Assembly (NCBI GenBank): GCA_051362555.1
Contig: CM120642.1
Coordinates: 21,824,001-21,888,000 of the forward strand
Direction: 5' to 3'
DNA from: Lingula anatina
Lineage: Eukaryota > Animalia > Brachiopoda
Length of the DNA stretch: 64,000 nt
Within the stretch, counting starts at the first letter, position 1. Every line of letters begins with the position of its first letter. Below, one piece after another: positions 48,001-64,000 of this stretch. The notes below the pieces were generated by a model. That model was not told where the DNA came from, ran no database searches, and saw only the letters and a program-made list of their open reading frames with translations. Made by a program: the position numbers and the translations under genes.

Positions 48001-51000
48001 CACAGCAAACAATTTATATAAACAGACATAGTCATACATTGACAACACCATCATTCAGCGCAATAGTAATGTGAGAAAACTGGCAAACACATTGTTCACA
48101 ATAAATACAAACACCAACAGTAATGACATAAACATGAACAGTAATGTTAATAAATACAAACAAACACAGTCACAATACAGACATACACAGTGATCAAAAT
48201 AAGTTGACATGTACAGTGATGACACAACCATGTAAAGTACACAGTGATCAGAATATGTGCAGACACAAACAGTAACAACACAAACATACACAGTGATCAA
48301 AATGAATATAAACATGTACATTGATAATAGTAATGTGCACTGTGATTAGAATAAACACAAGGAAAAAGTAAAACCATAGCCGTACACAGTCATCACAATA
48401 TATAGAAACACATTCAGTAACAATACATAATAGACACAGCAAACAAAATATAAACAGAAACATAGCCATACATTGACAACACAATAAATACAAACACAGA
48501 CAGTGACAGCACTAACGTGGACAGGAATCAAAATAAATTTAAACAAATAGAGTGACAGAAATGACATACACAATGCTCACAATAAATACAAACACCAACA
48601 GTAATGACGCAAACATATGCAGTGATCACAATGAATACAAACACAAACAGTGACAACATATACATGAATGGTAATGATAATGTTTAAAAACATATAGGAC
48701 AAACAGACATACACAGTGATCACAATACTTGCAAACACATACAGTAACAATATAGAATTGACACAGCAAACAGAATATAAACAGACACATAGACATACAG
48801 TGACAATACCATGATAAACAAACAGAGTGAAAAAACTGACATACACATTGCCAAGAGCCATATAAAGACACAAACAGTGACAACACTAAAATATCCAGTG
48901 ATCACAATAAAAACAAACACCAACAGTAACGACACAAACATATACAGTAATCACAATAAATAGAAACACAAACAGTGACAAAACAAACATGCACAGCAAT
49001 GATAATGATTACAAACAAATAGAAGGACAAACAGACTTACACAGTGATCAGAATTATGTGCAGACACAAACAGTAACAACAGAAACATACACAATGATCA
49101 AAATAAATATTAAATGAAAAACTGATAACAGTAACATGCACAGTAATGAGAATGAACACAAGGAAAATGTGTAAACAAAGCGATTCACAGTCATCACAAT
49201 ATATACAAACACATTCAGTAACAATACAGAAAGATACAGCAAACAGAATATAAACAGACACATAGACATAACATTGACAGCATGATCATTCAGCACAGTA
49301 GTAATGATTATAAACAAATAAATTGACAAAACTGACATACACAGTGCTCAAAATAAATACAATCACAAACAGTGACAACACAAACATGCACAGTAATCAA
49401 AATAAATACAAAGAAACACAGTCACAATACAGTCATAAAAAGTGATCAGAATAAGTTGACATGTACATTGACAAAACAACCATGTTAAGTAACCACGTAA
49501 CTGTTATGAAAAAGAGTGAAAACATAGCCGTACACAGTCATCACTATATATACAATCACATTCAGTAGCAATATTGAATAAACACAGCAAACAGAATATA
49601 AACAGACACATAGTCACACATTGACAACACCATCATTCAGCGCAATAGTAATGTTTACAAACAAAGAGTGACAAAACTGACTTATGCATTGCTAACAATA
49701 AATACAAACACCAACAGTAATGACACAAACATGAACAGTAATGTAAATAAATACAAACAAACACAGTCACAATACAGACATACACAGTGATCAGAATAAA
49801 TTTTGACATGTACAGTGACAACAAAACCATGCATAGTGACTAGAATGAAGAATAATTAATTAGGTGATAGCACAGTCATACACAGTGATCAGTGATGGAG
49901 TGAAAACACAGACATACACAGTGATCACAATATATATACAAACACATACAATGACAATAGAGAATGGAAACAGCAATCGGAATATGAACAGACACATAAA
50001 CTATGCTTACATCAACATCACCAACATGAACAGTTATAATAATGATTTAAAACATATAGACAGAAAAAACTGACATAAACATTGCTCACAATAAATATAA
50101 ACACAAACAGTAACAACACAAACATATACAGTGACCACAATAAATAGAAAGACAAACAGTGTCAAAACAAACATGCACAGCAATGATAATGATTACAAAC
50201 AAGTAGAAGGACAAACAGACCTACACAGTGCTGAGAATTAAATGTAGACACAAACAGTAACAACACTAACATACACAGTGATCAAAATAAATATTAATAT
50301 GTATATTGACAACAGTAACGTGCACCATAATGACAATGAACACAAGGGAAAAGAGTGAAAACATAGTTGTACACATTCATCACAATATGTACAAACACAT
50401 TCAGTAACAATATAGAATAGACACAAAAAACAGAATATAAACAGAAACATAAACATACATTGAAAACTCCGTCATTCAGCGCAATAGTAATGATTACGAA
50501 CAAATCGAGTGACAAAACTGACCTATAAAGTGCTCACAATAAATACAAGCACCAACAGTAATGATGCAAACATATACAGTGATCACAATGAATACAAACT
50601 TAAACATTGACAATATATACATGCACAGAAATCAAAATGAATACAAACAAATAGAGTGACAGAAATGCACAGTGCTCACAATAAATACAAAAACGAACAG
50701 TAACGACACAAACATATACAGTGATCACAACAAATAGAAACACAAGCAATGACAAAACAAACATGCACAGCAATGATAATGACTACAAACAAATAGATGG
50801 GAAAACAGACTTAAACAGTGATCAGAATTTTATGCAGCCACAAACAGTAACAACAGAAACATACACAGTGATCAAAATAGATATTAAATGAAAAAGAGAT
50901 AACAGTAACATGCACAGTAATGAGAATGAACACAAGGGAAAAAAGTGTAAACAAGGCGATACACAGTCATCACAATATATACAAACACATTCAGTAGCAA

Positions 51001-54000
51001 TACAGAAAAGACACAGCAAACAGAATATAAACAGACACATAGACATAACATTGACAGCATAATCATTCAGCACAGTAGTAATGATTACAAATAAATAAAT
51101 TGACAACACAAACATGCACAGTAATCAAAATAAATACAAACAAACACAGTCACAATACAGACATACACTGTGATCAGAATAAGTAAACATGTACAGTGAC
51201 AACAGAACCATGTAAAGTAACCAGAATTAGCACAAATTAATCTAGTGATTACACAGTCATACACAGTGATCAATGATAGAGTGAAAAGAAACACATACAA
51301 TGTGATCACAATATATTTACAAACACAGACAATGACAAAACAGAATGGAAACAGCAATGGGAATATAAACAGACACATAAACTATGCTTACAGAAACAAC
51401 ACCAACATGCACATTTATAATAATGATTTGTCATCAAAATATATACAAACACATTCAGAAACAATAGTGAATAGACACAGCAAACAATTTATATAAACAG
51501 ACATAGTCATACATTGACAACACCATCATTCAGCGCAATAGTAATGTGACAAAACTGGCAAACACATTGTTCACAATAAATACAAACACCAACAGTAATG
51601 ACATAAACATGAACAGTAATGTTAATAAATACAAACAAACACAGTCACAATACAGACATACACAGTGATCAAAATAAGTTGACATGAACAGTGATGACAC
51701 AACCATGTAAAGTACACAGTGATCAGAATATGTGAAGACACAAACAGTAACAACACAAACATACACAGTGATCAAAATGAATATAAACATGTACATTGAT
51801 AATAGTAATGTGCACTGTGATTAGAATAAACACAAGGAAAAAGTAAAACCATAGCCGTACACAGTCATCACAATATATATAGAAACACATTCAGTAACAA
51901 TACATAATAGACACAGCAAACAAAATATAAACAGAAACATAGCCATACATTGACAACACAATAAATACAAACACAGACAGTGACAGCACTAACGTGGACA
52001 GGAATCAAAATAAATTTAAACAAATAGAGTGACAGAAATGACATACACAATGCTCACAATAAATACAAACACCAACAGTAATGACGCAAACATATACAGT
52101 GATCACAATGAATACAAACACAAACAGTGACAACATATACATGCATGGTAATGATAATGTTTAAAAACATATAGGACAAACAGACATACACAGTGATCAC
52201 AATACTTGCAAACACATACAGTAACAATATAGAATTGACACAGCAAACAGAATATAAACAGACACATAGACATACAGTGACAATACCATGATAAACAAAC
52301 AGAGTGAAAAAACTGACATACACATTGCCAAGAGCCATATAAAGACACAAACAGTGACAACACTAAAATATCCAGTGATCACAATAAAAACAAACACCAA
52401 CAGTAACGACACAAACATATACAGTAATCACAATAAATAGAAACACAAACAGTGACAAAACAAACATGCACAGCAATGATAATGATTACAAACAAATAGA
52501 AGGACAAACAGACTTACACAGTGATCAGAATTATGTGCAGACACAAACAGTAACAACAGAAACATACACAATGATCAAAATAAATATTAAATGAAAAACT
52601 GATAACAGTAACATGCACAGTAATGAGAATGAACACAAGGAAAATGTGTAAAAAAAGCGATTCACAGTCATCACAATATATACATACTCATTCAGAAACA
52701 ATACAGAAAAGACACAGCAAACAGAATATAAACAGACACATAGACATAGCATTGACAGCATGATCATTCAGCACAGTAGTAATGATTATAAATAAATAAA
52801 TTGACAACACAAACATGCACAGTAATCAAAATAAATACAAACAAACACAGTCACAATACAGACATACACTGTGATCAGAATAAGTAAACATGTACAGTGA
52901 CAACAGAACCATGTAAAGTAACCAGAATTAGCACAAATTAATCTAGTGATTACACAGTCATACACAGTGATCAATGATAGAGTGAAAAGAAACACATACA
53001 ATGTGATCACAATATATTTACAAACACAGACAATGACAAAACAGAATGGAAACAGCAATGGGAATATAAACAGACACATAAACTATGCTTACAGAAACAA
53101 CACCAACATGCACATTTATAATAATGATTTGTCATCAAAATATATACAAACACATTCAGAAACAATACTGAATAGACACAGCAAACAATTTATATAAACA
53201 GACATAGTCATACATTGACAACACCATCATTCAGTGCAATAGTAATGTGACAAAACTGGCAAACACATTGTTCACAATAAATACAAACACCAACAGTAAT
53301 GACATAAACATGAACAGTAATGTTAATAAATACAAACAAACACAGTCACAATACAGACATACACAGTGATCAAAATAAGTTGACATGTACAGTGATGACA
53401 CAACCATGTAAAGTACACAGTGATCAGAATATGTGCAGACACAAACAGTAACAACACAAACATACACAGTGATCAAAATGAATATAAACATGTACATTGA
53501 TAATAGTAATGTGCACTGTGATTAGAATAAACACAAGGAAAAAGTAAAACCATAGCCGTACACAGTCATCACAATATATATAGAAACACATTCAGTAACA
53601 ATACATAATAGACACAGCAAACAAAATATAAACAGAAACATAGCCATACATTGACAACACAATAAATACAAACACAGACAGTGACAGCACTAACGTGGAC
53701 AGGAATCAAAATAAATTTAAACAAATAGAGTGACAGAAATGACATACACAATGCTCACAATAAATACAAACACCAACAGTAATGACGCAAACATATGCAG
53801 TGATCACAATGAATACAAACACAAACAGTGACAACATATACATGAATGGTAATGATAATGTTTAAAAACATATAGGACAAACAGACATACACAGTGATCA
53901 CAATACTTGCAAACACATACAGTAACAATATAGAATTGACACAGCAAACAGAATATAAACAGACACATAGACATACAGTGACAATACCATGATAAACAAA

Positions 54001-57000
54001 CAGAGTGAAAAAACTGACATACACATTGCCAAGAGCCATATAAAGACACAAACAGTGACAACACTAAAATATCCAGTGATCACAATAAAAACAAACACCA
54101 ACAGTAACGACACAAACATATACAGTAATCACAATAAATAGAAACACAAACAGTGACAAAACAAACATGCACAGCAATGATAATGATTACAAACAAATAG
54201 AAGGACAAACAGACTTACACAGTGATCAGAATTATGTGCAGACACAAACAGTAACAACAGAAACATACACAATGATCAAAATAAATATTATATGAAAAAC
54301 TGATAACAGTAACATGCACAGTAATGAGAATGAACACAAGGAAAATGTGTAAACAAAGCGATTCACAGTCATCACAATATATACAAACACATTCAGTAAC
54401 AATACAGAAAGATACAGCAAACAGAATATAAACAGACACATAGACATAACATTGACAGCATGATCATTCAGCACAGTAGTAATGATTATAAACAAATAAA
54501 TTGACAAAACTGACATACACAGTGCTCAAAATAAATACAATCACAAACAGTGACAACACAAACATGCACAGTAATCAAAATAAATACAAAGAAACACAGT
54601 CACAATACAGTCATAAAAAGTGATCAGAATAAGTTGACATGTACATTGACAAAACAACCATGTTAAGTAACCACGTAACTGTTATGAAAAAGAGTGAAAA
54701 CATAGCCGTACACAGTCATCACTATATATACAATCACATTCAGTAGCAATATTGAATAAACACAGCAAACAGAATATAAACAGACACATAGTCACACATT
54801 GACAACACCATCATTCAGCGCAATAGTAATGTTTACAAACAAAGAGAGTGACAAAACTGACTTATGCATTGCTAACAATAAATACAAACACCAACAGTAA
54901 TGACACAAACATGAACAGTAATGTAAATAAATACAAACAAACACAGTCACAATACAGACATACACAGTGATCAGAATAAATTTTGACATGTACAGTGACA
55001 ACAAAACCATACATAGTGACTAGAATGAAGAATAATTAATTAGGTGATAGCACAGTCATACACAGTGATCAGTGATGGAGTGAAAACACAGACATACACA
55101 GTGATCACAATATATATACAAACACATACAATGACAATAGAGAATGGAAACAGCAATCGGAATATGAACAGACACATAAACTATGCTTACATCAACATCA
55201 CCAACATGAACAGTTATAATAATGATTTAAAACATATAGACAGAAAAAACTGACATAAACATTGCTCACAATAAATATAAACACAAACAGTAACAACACA
55301 AACATATACAGTGACCACAATAAATAGAAAGACAAACAGTGTCAAAACAAACATGCACAGCAATGATAATGATTACAAACAAGTAGAAGGACAAACAGAC
55401 CTACACAGTGCTGAGAATTAAATGTAGACACAAACAGTAACAACACTAACATACACAGTGATCAAAATAAATATTAATATGTATATTGACAACAGTAACG
55501 TGCACCATAATGACAATGAACACAAGGGAAAAGAGTGAAAACATAGTTGTACACATTCATCACAATATGTACAAACACATTCAGTAACAATATAGAATAG
55601 ACACAAAAAACAGAATATAAACAGAAACATAAACATACATTGAAAACTCCGTCATTCAGCGCAATAGTAATGATTACGAACAAATCGAGTGACAAAACTG
55701 ACCTATAAAGTGCTCACAATAAATACAAGCACCAACAGTAATGATGCAAACATATACAGTGATCACAATGAATACAAACTTAAACATTGACAATATATAC
55801 ATGCACAGAAATCAAAATGAATACAAACAAATAGAGTGACAGAAATGCACAGTGCTCACAATAAATACAAAAACGAACAGTAACGACACAAACATATACA
55901 GTGATCACAACAAATAGAAACACAAGCAATGACAAAACAAACATGCACAGCAATGATAATGACTACAAACAAATAGATGGGAAAACAGACTTACACAGTG
56001 ATCAGAATTTTATGCAGCCACAAACAGTAACAACAGAAACATACACAGTGATCAAAATAGATATTAAATGAAAAAGAGATAACAGTAACATGCACAGTAA
56101 TGAGAATGAACACAAGGGAAAAAAGTGTAAACAAGGCGATACACAGTCATCACAATATATACAAACACATTCAGTAGCAATACAGAAAAGACACAGCAAA
56201 CAGAATATAAACAGACACATAGACATAACATTGACAGCATAATCATTCAGCACAGTAGTAATGATTACAAATAAATAAATGACAACACAAACATGCACAG
56301 TAATCAAAATAAATACAAACAAACACAGTCACAATACAGACATACACTGTGATCAGAATAAGTAAACATGTACAGTGACAACAGAACCATGTAAAGTAAC
56401 CAGAATTAGCACAAATTAATCTAGTGATTACACAGTCATACACAGTGATCAATGATAGAGTGAAAAGAAACACATACAATGTGATCACAATATATTTACA
56501 AACACAGACAATGACAAAACAGAATGGAAACAGCAATGGGAATATAAACAGACACATAAACTATGCTTACAGAAACAACACCAACATGCACATTTATAAT
56601 AATGATTTGTCATCAAAATATATACAAACACATTCAGAAACAATAGTGAATAGACACAGCAAACAATTTATATAAACAGACATAGTCATACATTGACAAC
56701 ACCATCATTCAGCGCAATAGTAATGTGACAAAACTGGCAAACACATTGTTCACAATAAATACAAACACCAACAGTAATGACATAAACATGAACAGTAATG
56801 TTAATAAATACAAACAAACACAGTCACAATACAGACATACACAGTGATCAAAATAAGTTGACATGTACAGTGATGACACAACCATGTAAAGTACACAGTG
56901 ATCAGAATATGTGCAGACACAAACAGTAACAACACAAACATACACAGTGATCAAAATGAATATAAACATGTACATTGATAATAGTAATGTGCACTGTGAT

Positions 57001-60000
57001 TAGAATAAACACAAGGAAAAAGTAAAACCATAGCCGTACACAGTCATCACAATATATATAGAAACACATTCAGTAACAATACATAATAGACACAGCAAAC
57101 AAAATATAAACAGAAACATAGCCATACATTGACAACACAATAAATACAAACACAGACAGTGACAGCACTAACGTGGACAGGAATCAAAATAAATTTAAAC
57201 AAATAGAGTGACAGAAATGACATACACAATGCTCACAATAAATACAAACACCAACAGTAATGACGCAAACATATACAGTGATCACAATGAATACAAACAC
57301 AAACAGTGACAACATATACATGCATGGTAATGATAATGTTTAAAAACATATAGGACAAACAGACTTACACAGTGATCACAATACTTGCAAACACATACAG
57401 TAACAATATAGAATTGACACAGCAAACAGAATATAAACAGACACATAGACATACAGTGACAATACCATGATAAACAAACAGAGTGAAAAAACTGACATAC
57501 ACATTGCCAAGAGCCATATAAAGACACAAACAGTGACAACACTAAAATATCCAGTGATCACAATAAAAACAAACACCAACAGTAACGACACAAACATATA
57601 CAGTAATCACAATAAATAGAAACACAAACAGTGACAAAACAAACATGCACAGCAATGATAATGATTACAAACAAATAGAAGGACAAACAGACTTACACAG
57701 TGATCAGAATTATGTGCAGACACAAACAGTAACAACAGAAACATACACAATGATCAAAATAAATATTAAATGAAAAACTGATAACAGTAACATGCACAGT
57801 AATGAGAATGAACACAAGGAAAATGTGTAAAAAAAGCGATTCACAGTCATCACAATATATACAAACACATTCAGAAACAATACAGAAAAGACACAGCAAA
57901 CAGAATATAAACAGACACATAGACATAGCATTGACAGCATGATCATTCAGCACAGTAGTAATGATTATAAATAAATAAATTGACAACACAAACATGCACA
58001 GTAATCAAAATAAATACAAACAAACACAGTCACAATACAGACATACACTGTGATCAGAATAAGTAAACATGTACAGTGACAACAGAACCATGTAAAGTAA
58101 CCAGAATTAGCACAAATTAATCTAGTGATTACACAGTCATACACAGTGATCAATGATAGAGTGAAAAGAAACACATACAATGTGATCACAATATATTTAC
58201 AAACACAGACAATGACAAAACAGAATGGAAACAGCAATGGGAATATAAACAGACACATAAACTATGCTTACAGAAACAACACCAACATGCACATTTATAA
58301 TAATGATTTGTCATCAAAATATATACAAACACATTCAGAAACAATACTGAATAGACACAGCAAACAATTTATATAAACAGACACATAGTCATACATTGAC
58401 AACACCATCATTCAGCGCAATAGTAATGTGACAAAACTGGCAAACACATTGTTCACAATAAATACAAACACCAACAGTAATGACATAAACATGAACAGTA
58501 ATGTTAATAAATACAAACAAACACAGTCACAATACAGACATACACAGTGATCAAAATAAGTTGACATGTACAGTGATGACACAACCATGTAAAGTACACA
58601 GTGATCAGAATATGTGCAGACACAAACAGTAACAACACAAACATACACAGTGATCAAAATGAATATAAACATGTACATTGATAATAGTAATGTGTACTGT
58701 GATTAGAATAAACACAAGGAAAAAGTAAAACCATAGCTGTACACAGTCATCACAATATATATAGAAACACATTCAGTAACAATACATAATAGACACAGCA
58801 AACAAAATATAAACAGAAACATAGCCATACATTGACAACACAATAAATACAAACACAGACAGTGACAGCACTAACGTGGACAGGAATCAAAATAAATTTA
58901 AACAAATAGAGTGACAGAAATGACATACACAATGCTCACAATAAATACAAACACCAACAGTAATGACGCAAACATATACAGTGATCACAATGAATACAAA
59001 CACAAACAGTGACAACATATACATGCATGGTAATGATAATGTTTAAAAACATATAGGACAAACAGACTTACACAGTGATCACAATACTTGCAAACACATA
59101 CAGTAACAATATAGAATTGACACAGCAAACAGAATATAAACAGACACATAGACATACAGTGACAATACCATGATAAACAAACAGAGTGAAAAAACTGACA
59201 TACACATTGCCAAGAGCCATATAAAGACACAAACAGTGACAACACTAAAATATCCAGTGATCACAATAAAAACAAACACCAACAGTAACGACACAAACAT
59301 ATACAGTAATCACAATAAATAGAAACACAAACAGTGACAAAACAAACATGCACAGCAATGATAATGATTACAAACAAATAGAAGGACAAACAGACTTACA
59401 CAGTGATCAGAATTATGTGCAGACACAAACAGTAACAACAGAAACATACACAATGATCAAAATAAATATTAAATGAAAAACTGATAACAGTAACATGCAC
59501 AGTAATGAGAATGAACACAAGGAAAATGTGTAAACAAAGCGATTCACAGTCATCACAATATATATACAAACACATTCAGTAACAATACAGAAAGATACAG
59601 CAAACAGAATATAAACAGACACATAGACATAACATTGACAGCATGATCATTCAGCACAGTAGTAATGATTATAAACAAATAAATTGACAAAACTGACATA
59701 CACAGTGCTCAAAATAAATACAATCACAAACAGTGACAACACAAACATGCACAGTAATCAAAATAAATACAAAGAAACACAGTCACAATACAGTCATAAA
59801 AAGTGATCAGAATAAGTTGACATGTACATTGACAAAACAACCATGTTAAGTAACCACGTAACTGTTATGAAAAAGAGTGAAAACATAGCCGTACACAGTC
59901 ATCACTATATATACAATCACATTCAGTAGCAATATTGAATAAACACAGCAAACAGAATATAAACAGACACATAGTCACACATTGACAACACCATCATTCA

Positions 60001-61182
60001 GCGCAATAGTAATGTTTACAAACAAAGAGAGTGACAAAACTGACTTATGCATTGCTAACAATAAATACAAACACCAACAGTAATGACACAAACATGAACA
60101 GTAATGTAAATAAATACAAACAAACACAGTCACAATACAGACATACACAGTGATCAGAATAAATTTTGACATGTACAGTGACAACAAAACCATACATAGT
60201 GACTAGAATGAAGAATAATTAATTAGGTGATAGCACAGTCATACACAGTGATCAGTGATGGAGTGAAAACACAGACATACACAGTGATCACAATATATAT
60301 ACAAACACATACAATGACAATAGAGAATGGAAACAGCAATCGGAATATGAACAGACACATAAACTATGCTTACATCAACATCACCAACATGAACAGTTAT
60401 AATAATGATTTAAAACATATAGACAGAAAAAACTGACATAAACATTGCTCACAATAAATATAAACACAAACAGTAACAACACAAACATATACAGTGACCA
60501 CAATAAATAGAAAGACAAACAGTGTCAAAACAAACATGCACAGCAATGATAATGATTATAAACAAGTAGAAGGACAAACAGACCTACACAGTGCTGAGAA
60601 TTAAATGTAGACATAAACAGTAACAACACTAACATACACAGTGATCAAAATAAATATTAATATGTATATTGACAACAGTAACGTGCACCATAATGACAAT
60701 GAACACAAGGGAAAAGAGTGAAAACATAGTTGTACACATTCATCACAATATGTACAAACACATTCAGTAACAATATAGAATAGACACAAAAAACAGAATA
60801 TAAACAGAAACATAAACATACATTGAAAACTCCGTCATTCAGCGCAATAGTAATGATTACGAACAAATCGAGTGACAAAACTGACCTATAAAGTGCTCAC
60901 AATAAATACAAGCACCAACAGTAATGATGCAAACATATACAGTGATCACAATGAATACAAACTTAAACATTGACAATATATACATGCACAGAAATCAAAA
61001 TGAATACAAACAAATAGAGTGACAGAAATGCACAGTGCTCACAATAAATACAAAAACGAACAGTAACGACACAAACATATACAGTGATCACAATAAATAG
61101 AAACACAAGCAATGACAAAACAAACATGCACAGCAATGATAATGACTACAAACAAATAGATGGGAAAACAGACTTACACAGT
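30100..61182. repeat. Homogeneous higher-order repeat: six tandem ~5.18-kb units (5182, 5182, 5178, 5178, 5180, 5183 bp)
   Basis: Marker gatcagaattttatgcagcc at 30100, 35282, 40464, 45642, 50820, 56000 and 61183. The MIAQS pseudo-ORF starts at 29144, 34326, 39508, 44686, 49864, 55044 and 60227. Confidence 0.96.
30360..33650. repeat. Internal ~1703-bp tandem duplication within each 5.18-kb HOR unit (first unit shown; ends approximate)
   Basis: The MITQS pseudo-ORF starts at 30525, 32228, 35707, 37410, 40889, 42592, 46067, 47770, 51245, 52946, 56424 and 58125, alternating ~1703 and ~3479. Markers acgtggacagg and gccaagagcc each occur twice per unit. Confidence 0.92.
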
Positions 61183-61443
61183 GATCAGAATTTTATGCAG
61201 CCACAAACAGTAACAACACAAACAAACAGGTGATCAAAATAGATATTAAATGAAAAAGAGATAACAGTAACATGCACAGTAATGAGAATGAACACAAGGG
61301 AAAAAAGTGTAAACAAGGCGATACACAGTCACCACAATATATACAAACACATTCAGTAACAATACAGAAAAGACACAGCAAACAGAATATAAACAGACAC
61401 ATAGACATAACATTGACAGCATGATCATTCAGCACAGTAGTAA

Positions 61444-62020
61444 GGAAAGTTTGGTGTAGTCAAACGACATTTTATGGCGACAACAATCTCCAAAGCTTAA
61501 TTACGCACATGTGCATTCTGCACATGCTCAATTGTGCCTTAGAGGGGTAATCTCCATTGAGGCACATGTTGCTACTTATACCATGGGGCATCACTGCCTG
61601 GCCTCATTTTGCTTGATTCATTCTGTTCACGCGCATAATACAATTAAGCTACAAGTTATCTCAAATCTTCAACTGAAATCTTCAGTTCAAAAAATTTCAT
61701 TTCTTTGCAACCCCACAAATGAAATTTGTGCAAAATTGTTGGTAAATAATAACTTTTGCTGACTCGTCGCATCATAATTTTTAGGATGATGAGTCTTATT
61801 GAATATTTGATATATAATTTTTATCCCTAAGGCCATAACATTTAATACAGGCAACAATTTGCTACATTGTTATTATTGTTAAAATGATTAGGATAGAGGG
61901 GTTATATAATAAAAGCGGCCTTGTTTGGCCAAATCACGAACAATCAATATTCCTTGTTGCCTTCTTTCTTGCTATGAATGAGACTATAAAAATTTGTGGT
62001 ACACTGAGATGGAGGAGACA
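61444..62020 (+). mobile_element. ~577-bp non-satellite insertion rich in hairpins; unclassified non-autonomous element or retroposed structured RNA
   Basis: The satellite normally reads cagcacagtagtaatgattataaataaataaattgac. Here it is split as cagcacagtagtaa|ggaaag...ggagaca|taaatgataataaataaataaattgac and resumes in register. The insert lacks the A/C skew, has no TIR, and has at most a 2-3 bp (ta/aa/taa) duplication. Strand is inferred from the G-T pair bias. Confidence 0.75.
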
Positions 62021-64000
62021 TAAATGATAATAAATAAATAAATTGACAACACAAACATGCACAGTAATAAAAATAAATGCAAACAAACACAGTCGCAATA
62101 CAGACATACACTGTGATCAGAATAAGTAAACATGTACAGTGACAACAGAACCATGTAAAGTAACCAGAATAAGCACAAATTAATCTAATGATTACACAGT
62201 CATACATAGTGATCAATGATAGAGTGAAAAGAAACACATACAATGTGATCACAATATATTTACAAACACAGACAATGACAAAACAGAATGGAAACAGCAA
62301 TCAGGATATAAACAGACACATACACATTGCTCACAATAAATCTAAACACAAAGAATGACAACACTAACATGCACAGTAATCAAATCAATTATGTTTAGAC
62401 TCAAACAGTAATGACACAATCATACACAGTGATCAAAATAAATATTAACATGTGAAGTGACAAAAGTAACATGCACCGTAATGAAAATGAACACAAGGAA
62501 AAAGAGTGAAAACATAGCCATACATAGTCTTCACAATATATACAAACACATTCAGTTATAATACAGAATAGAAACAGCAAATAGAATATAAACAGACACA
62601 TAGACGTACATTGACAACACCATAGTTCAGCGCAATAGTAATGTTAGCAAACAAAAAGAGTGACAAAACTGACATACACATTGCTCACAATAAATGCAAA
62701 CACCAACAGCAATGACACTAACATGAACAGTAATGTAAATAAATACAAACAAACACAGTCAGAATACAGACATACACAGTGATCAAAATAAGTTGACATG
62801 TACAGTGACGACACAACCATGTAAAGTAACCAGAATGAACACAAATTGATCCAGTGATAACACAGTCATACACAGTGATCAATGATGGAGTGAAAACACA
62901 CACATACAATGTGATCACAATGTACATACAACACATTCAGTGAGAATAGAGAATGGAAACAACAATCGGAATATAAACAGACACATAAACTATGCTTACA
63001 GTAACAACACCAACATGCACAGTTATAATAATGATTAAAAACATATAGACGGAAAAAACTAACATAAACATTGCTCAAATCAATGCAAACACAAACAGTA
63101 AGGACACAAACATATACAGTTATCACAATAAAAAGAAACAGAAACAGTGACAACGTAAACATGCACAGTAATGATAATGATTACAAACAAACACAGTCAG
63201 AATACAGACATACACAGTGATCAAAATAAGTTGACATGTACAGTGACGACACAACCATGTAAAGTAACCAGAATGAACACAAATTGATCCAGTGATAACA
63301 CAGTCATACACAGTGATCAATGATGGAGTGAAAACACGCACATACAATGTGATCACAATGTATTTACAACACATACAATGAGAATAGAGAATGGAAACAG
63401 CAATCGGAATATAAACAGACACATAAACTATGCTTACAGTAACAAAACAACATGCACAGTTATAATAATGATTTAAAACATATAGACTGAAAAAACTGAC
63501 ATACACATTGCTCACAATATATGAAACACAGGGAGTGACAACACTAACATGCACAGTAATCAAATCAATTATGTTTAGACACAAACTGTAACGACACAAT
63601 CATACACTGTGATCAAAATAAGTATTAACATGAACAGTGATAACAGTAACATGCACAGTAATGAGAATGAATAAGGAAGAAAAAGTGAAAACATAGCCAT
63701 ATAAAGTCACAGACAATATATACAAACACATTCAGTTATAATACAGAATAGAAACACAACAGAATATAAACAGACACATAGACATACATTGACAACACCA
63801 TCATTCAGCAATAGTAATGTTTACAAACAAAGAGAGTGACAAAACTGACTTATGCATTGCTAACAATAAATACAAACACCAACAGTAATGACATAAACAT
63901 ACACACTGATCAAATGAAATATTAAAATGTACATTGACAACAGTAATGTACACCATAATGGCAGTGAATATAACTAAAAATAGTGAAAACATAGCTGTAA
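62021..64000. repeat. Diverged (older) flank of the same satellite, not in 5.18-kb HOR register
   Basis: The same blocks recur with many private substitutions (aattgatccagtgataac, cacagtcagaatac, gtgacgacac). It carries left-domain-type markers ccagaataagc and gcaatcaggatata. Confidence 0.92.
62745..63520. repeat. ~438-bp offset duplication in the diverged flank
   Basis: agaatacagacatacacagtgatcaaaataagttgacatgtacagtgacgacac starts at 62761 and 63199, and the private marker aattgatccagtgataac is present in both copies. Confidence 0.85.

Follow-up and report, generated by a model that had tools for sequence, protein, structure and literature searches.

The 64,000-bp stretch of DNA that was analyzed, referred to here as the window, includes a 581-bp insert at positions 61444-62024 that interrupts a satellite array. 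It is one copy of an abundant DNA element without coding capacity, whose mechanism is probably of a known kind but whose ends are atypical, and an end-to-end RNA fold has likely not been selected for. Exact ends, the lack of a target-site duplication, a T|T insertion site, many different flanks, deletion forms, two alternative left ends, and head-to-tail joints were all observed directly. The element is probably a non-autonomous Helitron2/Helentron-like one, copied in trans by a rolling-circle process. A non-autonomous HUH-type element stood among the candidates proposed in an earlier note on this DNA.

The whole window outside the insert consists of one A/C-rich satellite. The array occupies positions 1 to 61443, with base periods of 49 and 147 bp (measured on positions 50000-64000) that are built into higher-order repeats of roughly 1.7, 3.5, and 5.2 kb, and resumes from 62025 to 64000 in a more diverged form. 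The 20-nt left flank of position 61444 has 26 exact matches, of which 25 continue into an empty site and one into the insert. At 24 satellite units the alignment of the 400-bp left flank extends over its full length, and that of the right flank (about 300 bp) starts at the very next base. The insertion produced no target-site duplication, as is the case for Helentrons and HINEs. The earlier view that the insert is mobile is right, and its right end, formerly placed at 62020, is corrected to 62024. The placement of the insert can slide by 2 bp over the dinucleotide AA (61442-61443 or 62023-62024), which on the minus strand is TT, i.e., a T|T step, and in this copy T runs are found at both tips on that strand. 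The marks of Helitron1 (5′ TC, 3′ CTRR, and an A|T site) are absent from the ends and from the empty site. On the basis of the empty sites, the loose ends after 62024, and a joint of one 581-bp unit, the whole element was defined as 61444-62024, tentatively on the minus strand following the Helitron2/Helentron convention. No second copy is present in the 64-kb window.

Outside the window the element belongs to a large family. Eleven sequencing runs contain the stretch or part of it, 10 of them from one organism, and the run index lists no RNA run containing it. In three DNA runs of organism A, 622, 799, and 643 contigs matched at 80% likeness, and the copies bear many different flanks. The right end is constant: flanks unlike one another begin after 62024 in 18, 24, and 22 contigs of the three runs (agreement about 0.4) and after 62023 in 4, the right tip consisting of 3 or 2 A's (T's on the minus strand) in other copies. 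This variation between 62024 and 62023 favors the rolling-circle reading, since it corresponds to the variable T runs of HINEs as described in the portions of PMC4067079 covered here. On the left, unlike flanks were also found before GGCC and position 61702 in 13, 14, and 21 contigs of the same runs. These flanks define an abundant short form of about 330 bp, which has a left end of its own and shares the right end. The module in common, 61702-62024 (minus strand), is delimited by loose ends before 61702 in the DNA contigs and in all four RNA runs. The left end of the short form repeats the layout of the outer left end, with a GG start, TTTG, 7-8 nt, and CAAA. Among the 15 listed of 50 joints, a deletion joint 61492->61888 is present in all three organism A runs and another, 61492->61958, in two of the three; both keep the two ends and lack the interior. 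The head-to-tail joint described below is not one of the 15 listed, a listing that speaks neither for nor against its presence in the DNA. The DNA contig tables behind these observations list 40 variant rows out of 105, 15 joints out of 50, and 23 loose ends out of 555. Some other copies have back-jumps of about 105-120 bp within 61702-61821, where additional letters occur, among them a run of G whose length varies; by analogy with HINEs, these could perhaps be the start of central tandem repeats. Three contigs from run X11 of organism B, two of them inside the insert at depth 2, were not accepted as evidence of a second host.

The combination of one constant end with alternatives at the other resembles 5′ truncation, as expected if the element were a SINE, a piece of a LINE/Penelope UTR, or a retroposed ncRNA. 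We consider this origin highly improbable: the left ends are two sharp points without spread, there is no target duplication, tail, B box, or tRNA, a T run lies 26 nt from the start, and the empty site largely refutes it. The earlier statement that the insert is neither a MITE nor a SINE stands, as there is also no perfect terminal inverted repeat of at least 8 bp, the tRNA search of the element was empty, and four of the stop-to-stop frames gave no Pfam hit, in agreement with the view that it has no TIR, tRNA head, or convincing ORF. Positions 61452-61461, with the common letter at 61455, resemble a tRNA A box at a tRNA-like spacing from the start. A tRNA-type SINE head was considered for this segment and rejected on the absence of a B box and the T run at 61470.

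The ends carry several features of rolling-circle elements. A hairpin at 61449-61465, 5 nt inside the left end, is the candidate 3′ terminator. With C at 61455, the letter found in nearly all RNA reads covering that position, the plus strand forms a lengthened 7-bp stem with a GTA loop, and the minus strand forms 5 bp; the energies for the plus and minus strands are -6.1 and -3.0 as RNA, and -3.2 and -2.0 as DNA. The hairpin is suitably placed for the short palindrome that follows the repeat near the 3′ end of Helentrons, and is weak on the minus strand. Its preference for the plus strand, which is not the strand peeled off in the assumed orientation, counts against the rolling-circle reading. 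Beside the hairpin, 28-33 bp from the end, is a candidate 3′ asymmetric inverted repeat (61471-61481, plus strand) that is complementary to the other tip. That tip, 62014-62024 (minus strand), is the constant end of the long and short forms and the candidate 5′ inverted repeat, with a TTT start and no hairpin; as DNA, neither strand of the region 61950-62025 gives a stable fold. The two repeats pair perfectly over 6 bp (62019-62024 with 61471-61476), and at 7 of 8 and 8 of 11 positions when extended, the chance of such a 6-mer in that zone being about 0.03.

According to the portions of PMC3627910 covered, Helitron2 elements have asymmetric inverted repeats of 8-15 bp, one set 0-2 bp inside the 5′ end and the other 20-30 bp inside the 3′ end, and a 5′-terminal hairpin that includes the repeat. 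The places of the repeats in the present element, one at the very tip and the other about 30 bp from the opposite end beside the hairpin, fit this layout and speak for the rolling-circle reading. The non-autonomous Helitron2 elements described there are also alike in the 5′ T, the lack of duplication, and the size (657 and 673 bp in two examples), but the element in the window has no 5′ hairpin, its repeat matches at 7 of 8 bp, and the host flank is not TTTT. The length of the repeat, 6 bp perfect against 11-15 bp in Helentrons, and the missing 5′ hairpin count against the rolling-circle reading, and for these two reasons we did not file the element as a member of Helentron or Helitron2. When 11-mers of the two end zones are paired, the best pair still contains 3 mismatches, short of the Helentron 11-15 bp rule, and none of the letters of other copies, among the variant rows listed for DNA and RNA, improves it.

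Among the closest known systems are the HINE/DINE-1-like non-autonomous Helentrons, including oyster Cg_HINE. As far as PMC4067079 and PMC7492417 were covered, these elements share the non-coding nature, the absence of duplication, the TT site, the variable T runs, a hairpin near one end, the layout of the asymmetric inverted repeats, the deletion derivatives, and a location in heterochromatin-like repeats. They differ in having inverted repeats of 11-15 bp with at most about 1 mismatch, whereas here only 6 bp are perfect, and the element of the window has no inner inverted repeat near the 5′ end, no microsatellite, and no central tandem array, and includes a 9-nt subterminal direct repeat and two alternative ends on the hairpin side. 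The set formed by no duplication, T|T insertion, an end hairpin, a constant end with alternative far ends, deletions, and joints is known from HINE/DINE-1-like Helentrons and Helitron2 in the covered parts of PMC4067079, PMC3627910, PMC7492417, PMC5148889, PMC11417382, and PMC5876387. The TT preference on the left flank is read from just this copy and the joint, and some short-form flanks in RNA end otherwise than AA, which counts against the rolling-circle reading.

In the mechanism that we favor, a Helitron2/Helentron-type transposase would nick the constant end at 62024 and peel off one strand from there. Peeling would stop at a hairpin-bearing end, either 61702 to generate the short form or 61444 to generate the long form found here, and the peeled strand would then be joined into a host TT. 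Tandem joints would arise when the stop is missed or when the T run of an older copy serves as the landing site. Which end is nicked, which strand is peeled, and which enzyme acts are proposed by analogy with Helraiser.

A joint of this type, 62022->61442, which corresponds to exactly one 581-bp unit, was found in RNA from three of four runs (4, 3, 0, and 12 reads); its source could be tandem copies or circles. The simplest source appears to be tandem copies read through by host transcripts, although circles are also possible. For Helitrons, the covered portions of PMC5876387 and PMC7492417 describe both head-to-tail joints and arrays of tandem copies. The four RNA runs, from three studies, gave 104, 65, 56, and 393 reads matching the element (8-12 million read per run, or 6-25% of each), 37-69% of which run on into unlike sequence. 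This RNA covers both strands and shows no pile-up of starts or ends of molecules in the four runs. Two of the four libraries were poly(A) or oligo-dT and two were unspecified, and the joint was present in one poly(A) and one oligo-dT library. Host transcripts that read through the element are the likely origin of this scarce RNA.

The joint also brings together two copies of a 9-nt motif. The first, GAAAGTTTG, is at 61445-61453 (plus strand), and the second is at 61988-61996 (plus strand) in most other copies, according to variant rows of the DNA and RNA runs; the copy in the window departs from it at 61988 and 61992, and both repeat letters occur together in one loose-end consensus of run X17. 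One repeat is separated from its end of the element by 1 nt and the other from the opposite end by 28 nt; across the head-to-tail joint they are 38 nt apart. No counterpart is described in the covered parts of the element literature, which counts against the rolling-circle reading.

The 9-nt repeat and the AA core keep an IS607- or Crypton-like recombinase or a Replitron-like enzyme in play. One proposal is that a double-stranded circle is moved by a site-specific recombinase (IS607-like serine, or Crypton/DIRS-like tyrosine) that would bind the 9-nt repeats and cross over at the AA core. Exactly this 2-bp AA is common to the joint, the empty site, and the two junctions, the direct repeats lie on either side of the joint, and IS607 elements recombine matching dinucleotides via a circle. 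We regard it as unlikely. In the covered parts of PMC10711439, which is also the source for the circle, the IS607 core is GG rather than AA, and mollusc Fanzor2 elements carry target duplications and terminal inverted repeats; Crypton terminal direct repeats are 4-6 bp in the covered parts of PMC3212892, compared to 2 bp (AA) in register here. The second left end would also be better suited to one-ended rolling-circle copying.

A different kind of HUH enzyme, Replitron-like or IS200/IS605-like, could instead act on the plus strand, inserting the element behind a fixed AA with a TAAA cleavage site at its end. This scheme accommodates the preference of the terminal hairpin for the plus strand and a right flank that is free after 62024, and the covered portions of PMC10288648 describe Replitrons as mostly lacking a target duplication and as carrying short direct repeats close to their ends or right at them. 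It is nevertheless quite unlikely, as the direct repeat is 28 nt subterminal at one end, the right end has no DNA hairpin, and Replitrons are reported from plants, algae, and protists. The joint resembles the 6-bp repeat of Replitron-1 reported in the covered text of PMC10288648, a likeness that we judged to be due to chance because the element lacks that repeat at both tips. Compared with the IS607 family and Replitrons jointly, as far as PMC10711439 and PMC10288648 were covered, the element is alike in the absence of duplication, the dinucleotide-defined insertion, and the near-end direct repeats, but it has an AA instead of a GG core, its repeat is away from the tips, and no enzyme gene was seen. 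There is a small chance that the family is a duplication-free eukaryotic one whose ends, in place of Helentron inverted repeats, would be read through the GTA-loop hairpin of the plus strand and the 9-nt direct repeat on both sides of an AA-core circle joint. Its mover would then be a recombinase or HUH enzyme that has yet to be linked with elements of this type in this host, and it would be expressed at a low level as head-to-tail or circular plus-strand RNA. If so, the element would point to an unrecognized transposase.

According to the earlier note, selection had shaped the plus strand to fold as single-stranded nucleic acid, over almost the whole length of the insert. A corresponding structured RNA element, retrozyme- or viroid-like, would circularize as plus RNA and be copied back into the genome. 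The fold of the plus strand (z about -3.9), joint reads that would be plus-strand RNA in the two stranded-looking runs showing the joint, and, in run X17, a thin plus-strand coverage that reaches every bin of the unit agree with such an element. It is very unlikely, since there is no hammerhead core on either strand and no Rfam hit, the joint reads number 3-12 per run with poly(A) libraries included, and copies with most of the interior deleted still spread. The hammerhead core motif followed by GAAA is absent from both strands of the circularized unit, and the Rfam search of the window gave no hit at the gathering score and one chance snoRNA hit (E 4.3). The lack of a ribozyme core, an Rfam match, or a discrete RNA also speaks against three readings that had been considered, namely a retrozyme, an ncRNA that was retroposed, and a Fanzor guide. 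Metazoan non-LTR retrozymes, as presented in the covered portions of PMC7229834, are similar in low G+C, head-to-tail units, and folding above shuffles; they differ in having a type I hammerhead in each unit and a size of 150-450 bp, which the element exceeds, and the element has interspersed single insertions with internal deletions. Retrozymes also give abundant monomeric linear and circular RNA; reads of the element were scarce in the portions of the four RNA runs covered, two of them from poly(A) or oligo-dT libraries.

The helices named earlier do exist where they were placed: 12 blocks have 92 pairs, of which 81 are Watson-Crick, 9 G-T, and 2 A-A (the rod at 61801-61952 is outside this count). 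Several of the long-range ones, such as 61494-61502/61642-61650, are absent from the computed minimum-energy fold. The computed folding energy is -147.9 kcal/mol for the plus strand (z -3.86, matched by 1 shuffle in 100) and -136.0 for the minus strand (z -1.97, matched by 3 in 100), so that stability above shuffles is confirmed and a one-strand property is not: a strand gap as large was found in 4 of 60 shuffles in the same direction and in 7 of 60 in either direction, and folding without G-U leaves the strands level (-110.0 and -112.9). The paired fraction of the plus fold is 0.67, compared to 0.586 ± 0.024 in 60 shuffles. In 120-nt windows the two best z values are on the minus strand (-3.5 and -3.3), the best on the plus strand being -2.6. 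Dominance of G-U was not found, with 25 G-U pairs in the plus fold and 21 ± 4 in shuffles. A strand-neutral stem finder gave G-T to A-C ratios of 5:5, 7:3, and 8:3 under three settings, with shuffles as skewed in 31, 6, and 1 of 60, respectively; the wobble skew of the plus strand is weak and setting-dependent, and is left only for short hairpins. Local stems number 14, against 10.5 ± 1.7 in shuffles, and the insert is therefore rich in short palindromes.

Other copies do not keep the one-strand folding, and the element is for this reason likely not a structured RNA. We pooled 40 listed rows of 105 from DNA and 40 of 158 from RNA, yielding 61 distinct variants in which subfamilies are mixed and haplotypes are not separated, a pool that does not replace an alignment of copies. 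On the plus fold 21 of them break a pair (one possibly rescued), 17 keep it, and 23 are unpaired, close to the 23.9, 16.8, and 20.3 expected from random placement (P 0.20), and placement on the minus fold and on the DNA folds is no better. The 21 variants on paired bases of the 12 helix blocks include 7 that make G-T, 6 that make A-C, 4 that mend G-T, and 4 other mismatches. None of these listed variants is a compensatory Watson-Crick swap, so the covariation sought is lacking, and in the two pairs where both partners vary the outcome would be C-T and A-C if the changes co-occur. When 13 commoner letters are inserted the energies become -137.4 for the plus strand and -139.5 for the minus strand (shuffles -128.6 ± 5.6 and -124.8 ± 6.3), and the edge of the plus strand is gone. 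The balance of G-T and A-C variants, the absence of compensatory swaps, and the loss of this edge argue against selection for end-to-end folding; what survives of the plus-strand preference is the terminal hairpin 61449-61465. The internal hairpins at 61494-61800 (plus strand) are present in this copy with pairs that are not conserved among others, and probably arise incidentally from a sequence rich in palindromes and in A+T, with no selected RNA fold.

If the rolling-circle reading is true, the element is an ordinary kind of repeat of modest value. The covered parts of PMC11417382 give inverted repeats of 11-17 nt as the HELIANO rule; the ends described here are below it, and such families would therefore be missed or left unclassified. 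This one may already be cataloged in Dfam or Repbase. The two alternative ends and the strand-biased hairpin provide a usable test of the start end and strand of Helitron2-type elements, which in the literature covered have been shown by experiment for the Helitron1 element Helraiser only.

Pattern scans of viral contigs and prokaryote genomes gave no match. The single metagenome match was inside a reading frame putatively labeled protein-kinase-like and was dropped as chance; that frame (L001, 1-1392) has in-frame TAA/TAG, which may point to a ciliate-type genetic code. No relative, and hence no autonomous RepHel(-endonuclease) partner with the same ends, emerged from these scans, and the lack of such a partner counts against the rolling-circle reading.

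The insertion lies at the edge of a homogeneous portion of the satellite. Blocks of 400 bp in 57043-61042 have 99.5-100% identity to other copies, that at 61043-61442 has 98%, and those past 62025 have 85-90%. Possibly the element marks the limit to which the higher-order repeats have spread, or acts as a barrier to them. Within 1-61443 the satellite has a strong strand skew (AT skew about 0.45) and a 49-bp unit built up into 147 bp and higher-order repeats, periods of 2126 and 3211 bp being also common.
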